64,000 bases of DNA, from contig NW_027191478.1 in the NCBI RefSeq assembly GCF_011745625.1, positions 124,001 to 188,000 of the forward strand, written 5' to 3'. The position numbers were made by a program, and so were the translations under genes. This document shows positions 23,314 through 39,319 of the stretch, one piece after another; position 1 is the stretch's first letter; every line of letters starts with the position of its first letter. Under the pieces are notes generated by a model. It saw only the letters and a list, made by a program, of their open reading frames with translations, was not told where the DNA came from and made no database searches. The DNA is from Cladosporium halotolerans. Lineage: Eukaryota.

Positions 23314-23509
23314 GATGGGCAGTTTCTACGAATGCCGTGGACGTAGGTGTGGAATTACAATGTTTGGATCGATGTCACTCATGCGACCTAGGTGAAGCTC
23401 GACGTTCACTGGCGCGCATTGCGGGACGAATTCGGCCGACGCGAGCTCATCTTCAAAAAAGTTACCGAGCCGGCTGCGACCTACGCTCCACACTCCACAC
23501 ACCGCAACC

Positions 23510-24504
23510 ATGCCTCACAAACATACTAGACGGACGCAGAATGCGAGCGAGTAAGTCGTACATCATATTCGGTAGTCTTCACCTTTCTAACCGCTCACAG
23601 TTTCAACCTCGCACCGAGCTCGAGCGCCCAACCTCTAGCCGCCTACACCAAGACTGGTTCTAAAGAAGACAAAAAGAAATCTGCACCAAAGAGAGGGACA
23701 GCAAAACCAGCCCCGAAAGCCGATTCCTCCAAGCCAAAAAGGAAAAAGAAGGAGCTCATCGAAGGATATGGTCTCGACGACACGCCCCGCGCCTTCGCGC
23801 GGCTGATGAACCAGCAATCGAACAAGCGTCACATTTCTGGACTCGATGATGGCGAAGATCGCTCAGCCAAGAAGGCAAAGACCTCGAAACTTGCGAAGGA
23901 TACGGAGGCATCGGAGGCGCCTGCCATCCCGAAGATCCAGCCAGGCGAGCGCATGTCCGATTACAATGCACGAGTAGACCAAGCGATCAAAGTCAGCGGC
24001 CTCGTGAAGAAAGGCAAAGCTGTTGAGGGTATTAAGGAGAGAAGGACAAAGAAAGAAAAGCAGATGCACAAGCTGTATGCGCAATGGCGAGAGGAGGAGA
24101 GAAAGATCCAAGAAGAGAAGGAAGAAGCGAGGGAGAAGCAGGAGGAAGAGGATGAGGAGAATGCGGCGAAGTACGGTGAGAGTATCAAGGTGCCTACAAT
24201 GACGCGGAAAGGAAAGCGGCAACGAGTGATTGGAGAGAGCGATGATAAGGAAGGTGACATTTGGGCATCATTGAAAGCGAAACGAGGGCAAAAGGCAAAA
24301 TTGGGCGATGTTGTGCAAGCGCCTCCGGAGCTTGTAAAGCCCAAGGAAAAGTTCAAGATGGCACGAGGTGCTAAGGTTGATGTCGCGAACGTGCCTGTTG
24401 CTTCTGGTAGTCTGAAGAAGCGTGAGGAGCTAAGTGACGCCCGCAGAGAAGTCATTGAGAGGTACAGGGCAATGATGCAAGGGCAGAGGGGCGAAGGACT
24501 GTAA
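23510..24504 (+). CDS. Conserved basic coiled-coil fungal protein (UPF0653-like)
   Basis: Exons 23510-23550 and 23601-24504. Motifs MPHKH, DDTPRAFARLM, KIQPGERMSDYNARVD, DVVQAPP, RREVIERYR. Confidence 0.75.
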
Positions 24505-24890
24505 ATCTGACAAATGTCTATCATGATACCCGGACAGATGTTCACAAGCGAGCACGATGATTCGTGTCGCAGCTTGCATTTGTATATCTCGACAAAGCTA
24601 TCATGAAGCAGAGAAAGCCGTTCTTATCATTCTGAAACAGCTAACAACATAGCCAAGCGCATGAGAATGTCCCCGAAATGGCCGGTGTCAGAAGCAGAGG
24701 CGCATTGAGGTTTCTGCACGCACTAAGAGCACGAGCTCTGTCGAGCCCACGAACAATCGCCGCCAATCATAGAAGGAGAATCCAGAACCTTGAATTCAGA
24801 TCAAGTCAACTCCACAAAGTTCACCGTCGCATTGTATCGCTTGGAGAGTGGTTGGATTGGCATTCGCTTGCGCATCGAAGGCTCCGTCAC

Positions 24891-25070
24891 CTAAGCCGAG
24901 GAAAGAGTGCAGCCATCGAAGACGCGACCTTGTCCGGAAAGAGTGCAGCCATCGAAGACACGGCCCTGCTTGGCAGAAAGGGTGCAGCCGTCGAAGACGC
25001 GACCTTGCGCCTTCTTGGAGAGAGTGCAGCCGTCAAAGACGCGACCCTGAGCGTGGAGAGTGTATTCCAT
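24891..25070 (-). CDS. 59-aa repeat peptide precursor with 4x QGRVFDGCTLS; candidate lipopeptide pheromone or RiPP precursor
   Basis: Hand translation: MEYTLHAQGRVFDGCTLSKKAQGRVFDGCTLSAKQGRVFDGCTLSGQGRVFDGCTLSSA*. All differences between repeats are at synonymous third positions. Start context is ACACAATGG. Confidence 0.85.
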   Translation of the reverse strand: MEYTLHAQGRVFDGCTLSKKAQGRVFDGCTLSAKQGRVFDGCTLSGQGRVFDGCTLSSA

Positions 25071-25095
25071 TGTGTTTGGCTGGTAGTTGCAAAGT

Positions 25096-25436
25096 CTGGG
25101 ACCTTTGGGATGGAGTTAGCGTGATTAGACACCAAGTCGGAACCTGAATAGACCTACTTAACGAACGTGAAGTAGCTTGATGGTCGAATAGGTATCGGTG
25201 GAGGAGGAGGAAGATGGAGCTGTCGCTTGATGTGATCGGTTATGTAGACGTGCTTTTTGATTGCGATCCGAATGTGGATTGTTGGGTGGTTCTAGGAGGA
25301 GAAAGAACCGGAGATTACTGATGGGTTGAGTTATAAGGCTCAGAGGAAGAACTGTTGCTGTTAGTATTGTATGTCGGCTCTGCTCACGGTCGAGCGACCT
25401 TTGTGCGTGACCTTAGTATTGTTCACAACGACAAAG
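25096..25436 (-). promoter_or_regulatory. Putative 5'UTR intron, TATA-like box and HMG-type sites upstream of the peptide gene
   Basis: Donor GTAGGT at 25157, branch GCTAAC at 25115-25120, acceptor AAG (25103) or CAG (25096). TTATAA at 25331-25336. CTTTGT at 25399, ATTGTT at 25418, ACAAAG at 25431. No upstream ATG between the TATA-like box and the start. Confidence 0.5.
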
Positions 25437-26225
25437 ACAACGTGGTCACGCCGAAGCATACAGCAGCGATCATGCGCCAAATGGCTTCACGGAACGTGAA
25501 TACTCGTTGAGCATACGTCAGCTGGAGCCGCCTACTATGATCCTCGCGTGTCTGAGCGATTTTGCTCAAAGAACGCCACATGGGTGGGCGGCTGTTCCCA
25601 AAAGGGAAAGCATGTAAGTGACCTCTGAAGGATCGGCGATCGCTGCCAGTGGCCCTGAGCCCGACGTCGAACCTGGATTGAGAGCAAATTGATGGTGACA
25701 TTCATGTTGCCTTTAGTATGTTAAACATGTACTGCGACTTGGACTAGCGCAGAGAGTGTCCCATCTGTATAGCTATATCACATGCTACCTTGGAACCTCA
25801 CTGTGATTTTGCTTGCACAGCAATTGAAGTCCAAGCAGCCGATTCAAGGGAGCATCCGAGTGCCCTTGAGGTATTGTTGTGGTTGTGACATCGGCCAACG
25901 AGGACGCCGGAGAGTACGAACTCGCCAACATTTCTTGTTGAACAGAAGAAAGCCGCAGAGCTTACATACACCTCCTGTTTTCAATGGTTTCAGCTAGATG
26001 TTCTCTTAGACTCGATGTTTGAGGTGTCGCATAGCAAGGAGATTGCTCTTGCTGTAGTCTATCATGTAAGTGAGGTGACGGGACCATTCATGCAGGTTGT
26101 CCGAGCGCTTTCCTTTTTGGGCGATTTGCGCTGCGCGAGCGAAGCGAACGTCACCGAGGCTTTCGAATGCCAGAACGCGACTTTCTTCTTTGTTCCTAGC
26201 ACTTTGGTCGCAAAACGCCATCACC

Positions 26226-28026
26226 ATGGGCAAAGGTAATTTCTAGACTGATTTTCAAATCTTGAACATTTGTTAACTGTTTCGTAGGTACCGACAAGCT
26301 GTACGTACGTCGTCGAAGTCCACGAAAGCACGCGAAAGCCGGCTAACATCCATCCCAGATCACCCACAGCGAGTGGTCAAGCGAAGATGCCTTTGGCGCG
26401 TCTGCCGGCGCCAACGCGCGCAGATCTGGCGTAGCAGGCGCGAGCTTCAAAAGACTGCCTTTCAACTTTTGCGCCGTCTCACTGCAACCATTCGAGCACC
26501 CTGTCTGCACTGCGGAGGGCACCATCTTCGACTTGACGAACATTCTTCCCTGGATCAAGAAACATGGGACCAATCCTGTCAACGGAGAACCTATCAAGAG
26601 CTCGGATTTGATCAAGCTCAACTTTGCGAAGAACGATGATGGGGAATACGTGGATCCGGTCACCTTCAAGGTGTTCACAGACAACACGCACATCGTAGCC
26701 TTGAGGAACACGGGGAACGTCTTCGCCTGGGACACCGTAGAGCGCCTCAATATTAAGGGGAAGAACTGGAAGGATTTAGTCACGGACGAAGACTTCGCTC
26801 GGAAAGACATCATCACCCTCCAAGATCCACAGAACGTCGCGTCGAGAGACTTGAGCCAGTTCAAATACCTGCAAGAAGGCACAAGCACCCTCACACCAGA
26901 GCAAGAAGCAGAACGAAGCGCCGGCATCAAAGGCCAGAACCTCGGCTCAGCCGCCAAAATCCTCAAGGCCAAAGAAGCCGTCGCCAAACGGCGCGAAGAC
27001 CGCGAGAAAGCCGCCTCCGGCTCCGCGACGCCAATCGAACAACAAGCCCTCGCGAACGCACGCAAAGCAGCCTCCGACGTCGCAAAGCACCGCACCACCA
27101 AACCCACCCCCTACAACGCCGCGCAGCACACCAGCGGCGCCGCCGCCGCCTCCTTCACATCCACGGGCCTGACGCCCAACACTTCCAACGACCGCGCCAT
27201 CCTCAGCGACGAAGAGTACATGCTCAAGCCGCGCCGCGTCAAGCACACGGGCTACGCCAGCCTGCGCACGACGCACGGCAGCATGAACCTCGCTCTGTAC
27301 CCCGAATTCGCGCCCAAAGCGGTCTGGAACTTCCTCGCGCTGGCGCGGAAGGGCGCGTACAACGGCGTCGCCTTCCACCGCAACATCCGCAACTTCATGC
27401 TGCAGGGCGGCGACCCGTCGGGCACAGGCCGTGGTGGGCAGAGCTGCTGGGGCAAGCCGTTCGCGGACGAGCTGGAGGGTCCGCAAACGCATGATGGGCG
27501 CGGGGTGCTGAGTATGGCGAACAAGGGCAAGGACACGAATACGTCGCAGTTCTTCTTGACGTACCGTGCGACGCCGCATTTGGACCGCAAGCATACTGTT
27601 TTTGGGCGCGTGATGGAGGGGTTGGAGACTTTGAAGCGACTGGAGGCTGTTCCCGTGGATGATAAGGATCGGCCGTTGGAGCGGTGCGCGATCGAGGAGG
27701 TGATTGTATTCGTCGACCCTTTCGAAGAGTTCCTCAAAGAGAGGTCTGAAACGGAGGCTGCAGAGGCAAGGAAGGAAGCTCTGAGGCGGGAGGGAGGCGC
27801 GGAAGACGAGAGGACGACATGGACTGGGAAGAGAATCAGAGCCGATGGCAAAGTGGAAGAGAGCAGCGGAGGAGGCGGAGTTGGGAAATATTTGCGCAAA
27901 GCCGCCGAGGAAGCGAAGAATGGCGGCGAGGATGAGATCGTAGGGGAGTGGGAAGAGCCCGAACCCGAACCGCCTTCCAAAAAAAGGAAGGGCGGTGGCG
28001 GGTTTGGCAATTTTGATGCCTGGTAA
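26226..28026 (+). CDS. PPIL2: U-box cyclophilin, peptidyl-prolyl cis-trans isomerase-like 2 (Cyp60/cyp8)
   Basis: Exons 26226-26235, 26288-26304 and 26359-28026 give MGKGTDKLYITHSEW. Also LPFNFCAVSLQPF, FHRNIRNFMLQGGDPSGTG, SQFFLTY..HLDRKHTVFG, and C-terminal FGNFDAW. Confidence 0.95.
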
Positions 28027-35723: not shown

Positions 35724-36803
35724 TGGGGGGTGACGGAAGAAATGTGCGTGGCATGTGTTATGAATTGAAACGAAACGATCTAATGGAGAGGGGTTCAAAA
35801 GCGTTGGAAAGAAAGCCCGGAGTCGGAGGGATATATCCTTGGGTAACATTTGACGCAGGAGGCGGGAGTTTCTTTGGTATTTTTCGTTTGTTCGATCGAA
35901 GCATTTCTTTGCATACTATTATATTTTGAAAGAGAACGATGCACATAGAAGGAGAAGAAGAAGCGTCGGCGCGCGGCGTTCGTATTTAGAAGCTAGATAT
36001 CTCGAATACATCGATGTTCATACTGCTAGGCTTTGGGGTCGGCCGCTTCTCGAATAAGAATCAAAACTTGTACTCGCCGGCAGGCCACGAGTCTTCAGAT
36101 AATTGGTGGCACGCCCTCTTGAATCGGCCAGGTTCTTCGTGACAAGAGCGAAGAAAAGGCTGGCCAGCGGAGAAATCACGGCCAACCGAGTCGCGAGTCG
36201 CTTGTCAAAAGCTGGGGAGGCCAGTGAGAGCGGTTCTCGACGTATTAGACCGCAGACGAGCGGTCATAACTATTGAGTAGCCTGATCACGACATCGCCGG
36301 GTGCCCGAGCGTCGAAATCCTAGCAGGAACTGAGTTTGGTCAAGCACCAGCGCCGCAAAGCTTAACCGCGACTGTCAGCAAACGAGCAGCGTGCGGCCGC
36401 ATGATTACAAGACTTAGAAGCGGCGTGACTGGATTCAATGATGATCTTGACGACGCATTCGTACAGCTTCCAATCTGTCCATTCAATCGATTGGCGATTT
36501 TCTTATCCTCCGTTAGGGTCTGGCTTGGGTCTCCGCTGGGTTGGGTAATCGACCGAGCTTAGCCCTTGTCTGCATCTCACAGACCGATAATGTTCTAGGT
36601 CGCCTATGCAAGAAAATGGGGCACTTCTCACCGTCACCTTCGAGCATACTGACTAGCGGCAGCGCACTATAATGGTGCAATCGTCCACGTTGTTGACGTT
36701 GGGGAGGGTCTCGTGGCTCGAAGCTGTTGTTGGGCTATAAAGTGAGCCATGTGCGACCTTTCTCAACCTTTAGTACGAAGAATTGCGTCCGAAACATCTG
36801 GAG

Positions 36804-39319
36804 ATGATTGCTAGCGAGCCCCCTCGACCTGAAGATTCGGCTGCGGCTTCCCGGCATCATGAAACGGAGACGAAAAACACGCCCCAGCACAGAATTACAG
36901 CAATAGCGGACGAGAACGATTTTGAGAAGCCACCATTTCTTTACACGACTGAGGCCAATAGCGAGCATGAAGATGCAATTGACGATGACGATCCCCGGGT
37001 CCGAGATATACCCCCATACGTGCGTCGCGTCGTGAGCTTCACAGACGACCCCGAGCTTCCGACCTTGACCTTTCGCTACTTCGTCTTAACGATAGTATTT
37101 GTCGTTCCTGGTGCTTTCCTCAGTATGCTTTCGCATTTTAGAAGTACCAGCGCGCCTTATAGTATCTTTTTTGTGCAGATCGCGTCAAGCTACGCCGGAG
37201 ATTGGCTGGCCAGAGTGCTGCCCAAGCGGAGCATTCGTTTCCCTTTCACTACTAGGTCTTTCTCCATGAACCCAGGGCCATTCAGCGTGAAAGAACACGT
37301 ACTTATCACCATCTCGGCTGCATCTGGAGCGACCTACAACCTTGGCTATGCTCCGGTTTCGATGGCGGAGCTTTACTTTGACTCACGGATGCATCCGATG
37401 GTCGCGATCTTTTTCATGTGGGCGATTGTCTGGACTGGTTACAGCTTTGCCGCGATCGCTCGGCAATTTCTGATCTACGATCCCCAATTCCCATGGTTTA
37501 CATCGTATGTGATCCGTTGGTAACGATGTTTTGGTTTCCTCCGCTAACTTACACTCAAGGCTGTGTCAGACCGCTCTATTTGAAATGCAGAAGAAGCAGA
37601 GACAAAACCCAACGCAGGAATCTCGCAAACAGACCAAAGTCTTCTGGCTGGCCCTGCTCGGCATCATCCTTTGGCAATTCCTACCTGAATTTGTCTTCCC
37701 CATGCTCGGATCCCTCGCCTTCTTATGCTGGGTTGCACCACGCAACCACGTTGCAAACTTTATCGGAGCAGGATTCGGTGGCATGGGCTTCTTGAACCTC
37801 AGCCTTGACTGGTCCAATATATCCTCTAAAGGGAGCCTCTTCCTAAACCCTTGGTGGACCCAAGTTGTCATCTTTTGTGGCTTCGCCTTTAGTTGTTGGG
37901 TGTTGATGCCCGCGGCCAGGTTTGGCAATCTGGGCGAGTGGAAAGATCATTTGCAGTCTAATCGATTGTTCCTCGGTGAGTCCTAACTGAATGGTAATGC
38001 CACAGAACGAGATGCTGACTTGCCTTTCAGAGAATGGGACTTCGTACCCGATTACAAGTCTTCTCACATCTCAGATCACGCTCAACGAGACCATGTATGC
38101 GGAACTTGGACCTCCTTTTGTCAGCACTCAAGTGCTATCAAATATGTTCTTCGACTATGCTGCATACACTTCCGCGATCGTCTGGATGGTGTACTTCGGT
38201 TGGAAACAATTGCATACGAGCTTATCCAAGGTGAAAGAGCGCATGAAAAGCAAGGGCGCCCGCATCAGCGAGCAATACAATGACCAATTGAGTATCTTGC
38301 AACGGTCTTATGACGAAGTACCGTTGTGGTGGTTTGGAGCGCTCTTCGGTGTATCGTTCGTATCACTGATCACGATGATCGCCTGTGGCAAGCTGTACAT
38401 TCCAGTCTGGACCTACTTCGTTGCTGTTGGCACCGGTGCAGTCATTGTGGTGCCCCTTGGCTGGCTGTACGCGCTATCCAATTTCCAGCTACCCATTGGG
38501 ACAGTCAATGAGCTCCTCTACGGCCTCATGGTGAACTCCATCGGCGGGTTCAAAAACCCAGTCGGTGCATCTGTGTACGGAAGCATTGCCGGCAATGCAT
38601 GGTACCGCGCCCAGTACAACCTCCAAGACATGAAGATCGGACACTACATGCACATACCGCCGAGAGCCGTCTTCTTCTCGCAGGTTTTCGGCTCCTTTCT
38701 CGGCATCCCCGTCAACTACGCTGTCATCCGGTGGGTGCTTGACACCAAGGCGGATTACATATCTGGCAAATTGACTGATCCCACGCACCAATGGACGGGT
38801 CAGGAGCTTGCCAGCAGCCTTACTACGGCCGTGCAATATGTCATGATAGTAAGTGGTCCCCCTTTGGAGGTTTGCATGGGCTCGTTGCTAACCCTCCCAC
38901 AGGGCCCCAACCGCCTGTTCCAGCAGCACATCTACCACTATCTGCCTCTCGGCTTCCTGGTGGGCGCTGCAGCTCCCATCTTTATCTACACCCTACATAG
39001 CCTCTTCCCACGCGCCAAATTCCAGCTCTGGAACACGACCATTTTCTTCAGCACGGCGGCGCACTTTTTCGGCAACGTCAGCACGGGCTACACGAGCAGC
39101 CTGATCGGCGGCTTTGTGGTGATGTTCTGGGCGTACCGCTACCGGTACACGCTATGGGCGCGGTGGAACTACATCTTAGCTGCGGCGTTCGATGCTGGCT
39201 TCAACTTCAATATGCTACTAGTCTTCCTCTTCTTTGGGGCCGGCAAGATTGTTGTCATGCCGCACTGGTGGGGCAACAGAGAGGATAGTAGTGAGAGGTG
39301 CTTTGCGCTAAGCAGCTAA
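36804..39319 (+). CDS. OPT-family oligopeptide transporter
   Basis: DDPELPTLTFRY, NPGPFSVKEHVLITI, WQFLPEFVFPML, QDMKIGHYMHIPPR, WNYILAAAFDAG. Introns 37505-37559, ~37976-38030 and ~38849-38902. Confidence 0.92.

Follow-up and report, generated by a model that had tools for sequence, protein, structure and literature searches.

Does the minus strand at positions 24891 to 25070 of the 64-kb stretch of Cladosporium DNA analysed here (the window) carry a gene, and does that gene encode a lipid-modified mating pheromone of a kind so far unreported in Cladosporium-type moulds? According to the excerpted text of Wilson et al. (2023, PMC10569646), the two pheromone receptors are conserved in filamentous ascomycetes, and so is the a-factor exporter. 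The same excerpts state that, until a candidate from the Leotiomycetes was put forward, the Sordariomycetes were the only filamentous ascomycetes in which an a-factor gene had been found, and that earlier efforts in other classes had failed; the Leotiomycete candidate is itself described there as putative and functionally doubtful (PMC10569646). Ste6-like genes are present at one per genome in all Dothideomycetes analysed, as stated in excerpts of PMC6071951, and excerpts of PMC4227064 report a Ste3 homologue from Aureobasidium. With an exporter of the Ste6 type in Dothideomycetes and a Ste3 homologue in Aureobasidium, a ligand is therefore to be expected. Searches of an open-access library yielded no description of the protein family presented below, nor of a pheromone gene of this kind in Dothideomycetes or Cladosporium.

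A 59-amino-acid ORF with four identical units

The ORF runs on the minus strand from ATG 25070 to TAG 24891. It encodes 59 amino acids, namely, the leader MEYTLHA followed by four copies of QGRVFDGCTLS, which are separated by KKA, AK and G, in that order, and a final SA. The translation is exactly the one described in an earlier reading of this DNA that had used the letters and their ORFs only (hereafter the sequence-only reading). The features of the coding region are as follows.

24891..25070, minus strand: coding sequence of the predicted 59-aa precursor, stop codon included (7-aa leader MEYTLHA, four units, spacers KKA/AK/G, tail SA)
25017..25049, minus strand: unit 1, QGRVFDGC + TLS (residues 8-18)
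24975..25007, minus strand: unit 2, QGRVFDGC + TLS (residues 22-32)
24936..24968, minus strand: unit 3, QGRVFDGC + TLS (residues 35-45)
24900..24932, minus strand: unit 4, QGRVFDGC + TLS (residues 47-57), followed only by S-A and the stop codon

At the DNA level, Tandem Repeats Finder reports the repeats as one array at 24900-25046, with a period of 36, 3.8 copies, 77% matches and 7% indels. The start codon at 25070 has A at position -3 and G at +4. The protein contains one KK pair (residues 19-20) and no KR. Signal peptides were sought with a crude hydropathy scan (9-residue Kyte-Doolittle means) and not with SignalP; the highest mean within residues 1-35 is 1.08, and the protein has no hydrophobic N-terminus, in agreement with the earlier remark that a signal peptide is lacking. 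In size and in the lack of a signal peptide, the 59-aa protein corresponds to precursors of the a-factor class (<100 aa, without a signal peptide).

The gene is transcribed and spliced

In total, 24 sequencing runs from 16 studies contain this DNA in part or in full. As transcript evidence, we aligned contigs of four public runs on positions 23400-26400; the kinds of these runs are only guessed in the run table. The stretch is present at 100% identity in an 81-kb contig of run X19, which is probably source DNA. Contig 6 of run X1 matches the window with 0 differences over 288 nt and connects 24962-25100 with 25156-25303, and contig 14 of run X4, which comes from a second study, contains the identical join 25100->25156. 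The intron skipped at this join ends about 30-32 nt upstream of the ATG and is a textbook fungal intron, with GT..AG borders and a CTAAC branch site. A second intron farther upstream is skipped in a single contig of X1 with a depth of 2.4, and the corresponding stretch is unspliced in X4 contig 14. The transcribed features outside the ORF are listed below.

25103..25157, minus strand: 5'UTR intron 1, 55 nt, GTAGGT...GCTAAC...AG (joint 25100->25156, with a 2-base ambiguity, in one contig each of X1 and X4)
25352..25398, minus strand: 5'UTR intron 2, 47 nt, GTCGCT...TACTAAC...CAG (joint 25351->25399, X1 contig 7)
25158..25351, minus strand: 5'UTR exon between the introns, without ATG (X1 contig 6, 25156-25303; X4 contig 14, 25156-25504)
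24716..24890, minus strand: 3'UTR, extending at least this far (X1 contig 5, 24716-24923; X3 contig 12, 24763-25144; X4 contig 14, continuous over 23601-25100)

In X4 contig 14, a GT..AG stretch of the plus strand in front of the neighbouring gene (23551-23600) is skipped as well. The contigs are therefore derived from RNA, despite the guessed run kinds. The 3'UTR converges on a plus-strand gene for a K/E-rich protein, which ends at 24504.

In the spliced RNA, ATG 25070 has an in-frame stop codon upstream, and no further ATG intervenes from about 25459 to 25070. A transcript that begins anywhere downstream of about 25459 has ATG 25070 as its first AUG. Use of the long leader, which a single low-depth contig shows, would place two uAUGs, at 25473 and 25459, ahead of the ORF. 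A hidden 3' splice that would create a CaaX box directly before a stop codon was considered and rejected; the RNA contigs are unspliced through the stop codon, and the product therefore really ends in ...CTLSSA.

These data establish that an unannotated gene on the minus strand is real, transcribed and spliced. The spliced RNA contigs from X1 and X4 thus bear out the hidden gene that had been proposed for this position.

The ORF is a coding sequence under purifying selection

The DNA sequences of the four units (33 nt each) vary at eight sites, all of which are third codon positions, transitions and synonymous (8/8 in each respect). These are the same eight codon pairs that the sequence-only reading had listed when it noted that the copies differ only synonymously. 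The synonymous share of the possible changes in one unit is 11/33 for transitions and 25/99 for single-base changes, and the probability that eight of eight changes are synonymous by chance is about 1.5e-4 or 1.7e-5, respectively.

Four sites of the ORF (24921, 24930, 25005 and 25029) are different in a diverged lineage, which is represented by contigs from two studies (X3 contig 12 and X4 contig 14), and all four differences are synonymous (V50, Q47, Q22 and G14; P about 0.004). For X4 contig 14, the list of differences over 23601-25100 is complete (26 differences), so that none within the ORF was overlooked; in the upstream leader, 349 nt of this contig contain 26 differences and 3 gaps. Taken together, the changes inside the gene and those between lineages are synonymous in 12 of 12 cases. 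The spacers are 3, 2 and 1 codons long, and the frame is kept throughout.

The back-translated motif GGNTGYACNYTNTC has four matches in the 64-kb window, all inside the ORF, where 0.10 would be expected, and none of 100 shuffles reached four matches. An antisense ORF of 148 aa (24678-25124, plus strand) was considered as the selected frame and rejected, since its repeats are not identical as protein; the selected frame is therefore that of the minus strand. We conclude that 25070..24891 is a coding sequence under purifying selection and not a chance ORF on a minisatellite. The selection on the peptide that had been suspected from its repeats is seen both within the gene (8/8) and between lineages (4/4).

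The protein has a small family of homologues

A word-based protein search with the 59-aa protein as the query (P0001) returned 17 candidates, none of them at E<=1. With phmmer, the same query gave 112 matches at E<=0.001 among 1.84 billion representatives. Twenty of these 112, chosen as short (<=233 aa), were read; the remaining 92 are nearly all long repetitive proteins of 266-5673 aa, apart from three of 213-216 aa that were left out of the short set. Only one of the 20 short matches read, P0012 (E 4.2e-11), has the same build, and none of them resembles an h-type protein. P0012 is 79 aa long and consists of an internal MEFALSKK leader, four units of the form GRxIDGC-TLS/TVS, basic spacers and the tail YM.

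Profile searches with two alignments, A1 and A2, yielded 2 proteins among 799 candidates and 6 among 1082. Six homologues were found in total: P0012, P0114, P0115, P0116, P0117 and P0118. The source name of P0115 is 'hypothetical protein Q7P35_012313 [Cladosporium inversicolor]'. P0114-P0118 start with MQFT(N/T)-ME(L/F)VLNK and contain one to three units VDQGxxxxGGC-(T/V)(L/V)(S/Q). In P0114, P0116, P0117 and P0118, and not in the P0115 gene model, there is a final distinct unit, G(L/M)GRD(S/T)SC-TVS, plus two residues. A search of metagenome contigs with A1 gave 95 pattern matches and two loci that passed tblastn, both of which were rejected as spurious, lying inside unrelated ORFs (771 aa; 284/313 aa).

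All seven proteins (the six homologues and the 59-aa protein) share a short ME..L leader and two to four units, and the invariant columns of their alignment are M, E and L in the leader and G, C, T and S in the box. The spacers across the family are mostly basic. P0116 and P0118 differ in the number of units and retain the unit sequence. None of the seven proteins has a stretch resembling a signal peptide (9-residue hydropathy maxima of 0.39-1.52), and a Pfam search at E<=5 gave sub-threshold noise only for all seven, with no family above the cutoff. Judged by these alignments, the gene belongs to a conserved family, the most conserved part of which is the Cys box C-[TV]-[LV]-[SQ].

The Cys box fits farnesylation but is never at the stop codon

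All 23 units of the seven proteins end in G/S-C-[TV]-[LV]-[SQ]. The boxes are CTLS (11), CTVS (9), CVLQ (1), CVLS (1) and CTLQ (1), with the tripeptide TLS or TVS after the Cys in 20 of the 23 units, and 23 of the 24 cysteines in the family belong to one of these boxes. Immediately after the box stands K or R in 12 units and Y in 6. Farnesyltransferase accepts CaaX boxes with an aliphatic residue at a2 and with S, Q, M, A or C as X, and the box composition agrees with this rule in 23/23 units. The part that precedes the Cys varies among the members (GRVFD, GRPID, GAPYTN, GAPYDG, GAPWVG and GYAYEG). A variable pre-Cys part joined to a constant box is what one would expect of a receptor ligand that carries a common processing signal.

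Farnesyltransferase also requires the box at a free C-terminus. The 59-aa protein ends in CTLS-SA-stop, so that neither a CAAX nor a CPAX box stands directly before the stop codon, and exactly two residues follow the last box in six of the seven proteins, the exception being P0115, an automatic gene model. The earlier description of the product as a multi-CaaX protein therefore fails in the strict sense, as no unit is terminal. Because farnesyltransferase needs a free C-terminal box and the last box is followed by SA, an additional protease step that exposes the units would be required. The search pipeline of Wilson et al. demands, in the excerpted text, a box directly before the stop codon (2023, PMC10569646), and so does that of Srikant et al. 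for yeasts. With boxes that are not at the stop, the family would be missed by both pipelines.

Genomic neighbourhood

The neighbourhood was scanned as the 75 ORFs of at least 170 aa in the 64-kb window. The neighbours of the gene encode an MFAP1 splicing factor, the K/E-rich protein, which has no family, and a PPIL2-type cyclophilin. Among the 75 ORFs, there was no STE3, STE20, MAT/HMG, homeodomain, prenyltransferase or ABC exporter gene, and no RiPP tailoring enzyme. Pheromone genes of ascomycetes are not expected to be linked to MAT. The Ste12-type element, TGAAACA, is absent upstream of the gene; the window contains 6 copies where 8.6 would be expected, and the one closest to the gene, at 24633, is on its downstream side. 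The ORFs of the window are long and intron-free, which, together with the homologue named from Cladosporium, gives it the look of a filamentous ascomycete.

Proposed function and alternative explanations

By analogy with known precursors, we propose that the product of the gene is a tandem precursor, lacking a signal peptide, of farnesylated pheromone peptides (lipopeptides) of the a-factor class, a reading to which we assign a probability of roughly 0.55. Apart from the box, the family resembles lipopeptide pheromone precursors in its small size, its missing signal peptide, its absence from annotation and its varying number of copies. The 59-aa product would be made in the cytosol and cut into its units, by which each C-T-L-S box would become C-terminal. 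A CaaX farnesyltransferase would then farnesylate the Cys of the box, Rce1/Ste24-type proteases would remove TLS, and the Cys would possibly be carboxymethylated. Up to four copies of (Q)GRVFDGC-S-farnesyl could be exported via an ABC exporter of the Ste6 type and would act on a Ste3-type receptor. Translation, the release of the units, prenylation, export, the receptor and the role in mating are all steps that we infer.

Several points weigh against a pheromone. No unit is a true CaaX box, so that a prior protease step is needed, and what follows the boxes (KKA, AK, G and SA) fits no single cleavage rule. There is no mating-related gene among the 75 ORFs of the window, and TGAAACA is not found upstream. 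With 8 residues, R and D among them, the predicted mature peptide is short. Finally, the uAUGs at 25473 and 25459 would precede the ORF if the long leader, which is present in one low-depth contig, were used.

Some of these points would suit a repeat-core precursor, either a RiPP or a secreted peptide, that is matured without CaaX prenylation and in which G-C-T-[LV]-S is the recognition or cross-linking site of another enzyme. The box is never C-terminal, and the canonical prenylation route therefore cannot act on the primary product; in addition, the Cys adjoins Thr and Ser residues that are conserved, the identical units could be excised as in repeat-core precursors, and none of the seven proteins has a Pfam match. 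However, no tailoring enzyme is found beside the gene or among the 75 ORFs, and the changes tolerated in the box (T/V, L/V and S/Q) suit CaaX rules better than a cross-link that depends on Ser or Thr. Known fungal repeat-core precursors, as described in excerpts of PMC10569646 and PMC6339444, have a signal peptide and KR sites, both of which are absent here, and we consider this explanation unlikely, if still a serious one. Another possibility retains the farnesyl chemistry and assigns it a role other than mating, namely, an autocrine or quorum-type signal for germination or development that would be expressed independently of mating type. Quorum sensing is raised as a possible use of a-factor in excerpts of the Huntiella paper (PMC10182648), and the window, without a mating context and without TGAAACA upstream of the gene, would agree with such a role. 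On the other hand, the architecture matches pheromone genes of red yeasts that are linked to MAT, and every chemical step inferred for such a signal is shared with the pheromone proposal; we regard a purely non-mating signal as distinctly improbable.

The product could also remain unprocessed, as a small intracellular protein or the translated product of a young tandem-repeat ORF with no role in signalling. There is no match to a fold or family, and the many unrelated repetitive proteins among the phmmer matches indicate that repeat ORFs are common. Nevertheless, the leader, box and tail are kept across clearly diverged family sequences, the 12 observed changes are all synonymous, and the variation in unit number with retention of the unit sequence (P0116 versus P0118) is typical of multi-copy peptide precursors and not of folded proteins, all of which makes an unprocessed protein very unlikely. 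It is hardly credible that the transcript is non-coding and the ORF a chance product of a DNA minisatellite. The ORF is indeed short and unannotated, and the DNA is tandemly repeated, but the 8 differences within the gene and the 4 between lineages are synonymous in the minus frame without exception, the antisense repeats differ as protein, homologues exist at the protein level, and spacers of 3, 2 and 1 codons keep the frame.

The precursor of farnesylated pheromone peptides is thus the reading that we favour. This raises a broader and more tentative possibility, which we consider realistic without counting on it. The family may represent the long-missing a-factor-class pheromone of the Dothideomycetes, and perhaps of further Pezizomycotina outside the Sordariomycetes, whose boxes, never placed at the stop codon, would have let it escape notice. 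Its tandem design of peptide-GC-T(V/L)S-spacer would be common to the red yeasts through either an ancient origin in the Dikarya or convergence, and the end composed of a box plus two residues would imply an undescribed protease that releases or trims the units before farnesyltransferase acts. With a conserved and transcribed candidate that has a homologue named from Cladosporium, it becomes testable whether ubiquitous 'asexual' moulds signal through Ste3, and with which pheromone. The gene would also bear on the question of an ancestral tandem lipopeptide design in the Dikarya, and on how tandem CaaX units are released, a question that is likewise unsolved for rhodotorucine A and the h-type precursors according to excerpts of PMC3068285.

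Comparison with known pheromone and repeat precursors

Precursors of the alpha-factor type and other repeat precursors processed by KEX2 have an N-terminal signal peptide and KR/STE13 sites around each repeat, as described in excerpts of PMC10569646. They and the repeat-core RiPPs resemble the 59-aa protein in their tandem identical core peptides and short spacers. In contrast to them, the 59-aa protein has no signal peptide, no KR and only one KK. Single-copy a-factor precursors are represented, in excerpts of PMC10569646, by yeast MFA, Sordariomycete mfa-1/ppg2 and the putative Leotiomycete precursor, which ends in CTVM. The likeness here, as far as those excerpts go, consists of a length of <100 aa, the absence of a signal peptide and a Cys box after a G-rich or aromatic stretch. 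The single mature peptide, the S/T-rich N-terminal extension, the GY motif and the box at the stop codon that are described in these excerpts for single-copy precursors have no counterpart in our protein.

Precursors with several boxes are closer. The excerpts of PMC3068285 describe HPP1 of Trichoderma reesei, which has three (LI)GC(TS)VM motifs and basic sites and is indispensable for male fertility, and define h-type proteins by one copy of the motif at the extreme C-terminus, where it forms a CAAX box. They also state that the KEX2-type sites of HPP1 are dispensable and propose a rhodotorucine-like release of several prenylated peptides (PMC3068285). Several CpaX repeats are present in the a-factors of Huntiella and of the Fusarium fujikuroi complex, according to excerpts of PMC10182648. 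All of these are small signal-less precursors with several motifs of the type G-C-(T/S)-V-x and basic sites in between, as here. They differ from our family in host group, which is Sordariomycete for HPP1, Huntiella and Fusarium and Dothideomycete for this family. HPP1 has three (LI)GC(TS)VM motifs, whereas the 59-aa protein has four DGCTLS, with LS instead of VM and with D before the G; the X residue in our family is S or Q and not M, and no copy is C-terminal in a protein that ends in CTLSSA. The parallel with HPP1 that the sequence-only reading had drawn is thus a fair one in that precursors with multiple CaaX motifs and basic spacers do exist. It does not identify the nearest type, which is that of the red yeasts, and it does not extend to the C-terminus, where our protein has no box.

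In the red yeasts, the Rha2 precursors of rhodotorucine A (RHA) consist of M-x-A and four to five identical peptides of 11-12 aa that end in GC, followed by TVS or TVA and then by K, R or K/R + T/S (PMC3236058). Rha2 of Sporobolomyces sp. IAM 13481 ends in GCTVSKA, that is, in a box plus two residues, and that of S. salmonicolor ends in GC(T/I)VSKTVA, while the precursors of R. toruloides and S. johnsonii end in true boxes, CTVA and CTIA (PMC3236058). The RHA2.A1 genes of S. salmonicolor and S. johnsonii strains differ by synonymous substitutions only, and RHA genes have STE3 and STE20 as neighbours in the basidiomycete MAT pheromone/receptor locus (PMC3236058). The literature passages on the red-yeast precursors name neither a maturation enzyme nor a demonstrated processing step. 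Differences from our gene are evident. The window looks like that of a filamentous ascomycete and not of a basidiomycete. The spacers are constant in RHA (K or R(T/S)) and irregular here (KKA, AK and G), and the red-yeast genes lie in the MAT locus beside STE3, whereas the 64-kb window contains neither STE3 nor STE20.

The likeness is one of architecture and not of sequence alignment. In both cases, a very short leader (7 aa here) is followed by tandem identical units that end in G-C (four here). In RHA, the GC is followed by a CaaX-like tripeptide (TVS/TVA) and a basic spacer; in our family, TLS or TVS follows the Cys in 20 of 23 units and K or R follows the box in 12 of 23, with KKA, AK, G and SA in the 59-aa protein itself. 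Both types of precursor lack a signal peptide, can carry extra residues after the box at the C-terminus, and show differences that are exclusively synonymous. On these grounds, the RHA precursors of the red yeasts are the closest known architecture to that of the gene described here, with HPP1 of T. reesei less close.

Transcription around the peptide gene

The peptide gene, which encodes four identical QGRVFDGCTLS units on the minus strand, lies between a K/E-rich gene and a PPIL2-type cyclophilin gene. The features concerned, by window position, are as follows.

23551-23600, + strand, 50-nt 5'UTR intron of the K/E-rich gene (GT..AG, skipped in X4 contig 14)
23806-24504, + strand, ORF of the K/E-rich gene, bridged to the peptide gene by X4 contig 14
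26347-28023, whole ORF of the PPIL2-type cyclophilin gene (ORF scan of the window)
36774-37520 and 37991-39316 (span 36774-39316), two ORFs of an OPT oligopeptide transporter (ORF scan)

A single 1,895-nt contig (contig 14) from X4, one of two public sequencing runs (X3 and X4) with contigs from a diverged lineage, aligned to 23502-25504 and spanned both the K/E-rich gene (+) and the peptide gene (-), indicating that the convergent transcripts either overlap or were merged in the assembly. This contig lacks 23551-23600, and since the skipped stretch is GT..AG on the + strand, we assign it as an intron in the 5'UTR of the K/E-rich gene. For the K/E-rich protein, Pfam returned no family with the cutoff relaxed to E<=5.

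Strongly diverged contigs cover positions 25517-26021, which lie upstream of the peptide gene: those of X3 differ at 36 of 308 nt, and those of X4 at 46 of 502 nt in addition to gaps. The region looks transcribed yet poorly conserved, and would represent either an independent noncoding RNA or an extended leader. If it belongs to the peptide mRNA, extra upstream AUGs would be present at 25514, 25473, and 25459. At the start of the cyclophilin gene (26211-26400), X4 contig 16 connects 26238 to 26359, skipping 120 nt (AT..AG) and carrying 10 other letters in their place; this looks like replaced sequence in a relative and not like an intron.

The two OPT transporter ORFs, presumably split by one or more introns, are located 12 kb from the peptide gene.

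Unit types in homologs and other tandem-box proteins

Four Cladosporium-type homologs (P0114, P0116, P0117, and P0118) harbor two distinct unit types within one precursor: VDQGxxxxGGC-box units come first, and the last unit, G(L/M)GRD(S/T)SC-TVS, is similar to the units of the window peptide gene and of the homolog P0012. A single complete unit separates P0116 from P0118. In the NCBI model of P0115 (Q7P35_012313, Cladosporium inversicolor), CTVSY is followed by a long, unrelated tail, probably a gene-model error.

Tandem units with a G-C-aliphatic-aliphatic-S box are also found in three small predicted proteins: P0078 (IDIGC-LFS, then four DVDDGC-LLS, an EAQ(N/K) spacer following each), P0037 (five FDGC-ALS, separated by four GLHSLRSL spacers), and P0103 (units of GRVFRGC-LVS-ETA). 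These may be mere minisatellite ORFs or analogous tandem-box precursors.
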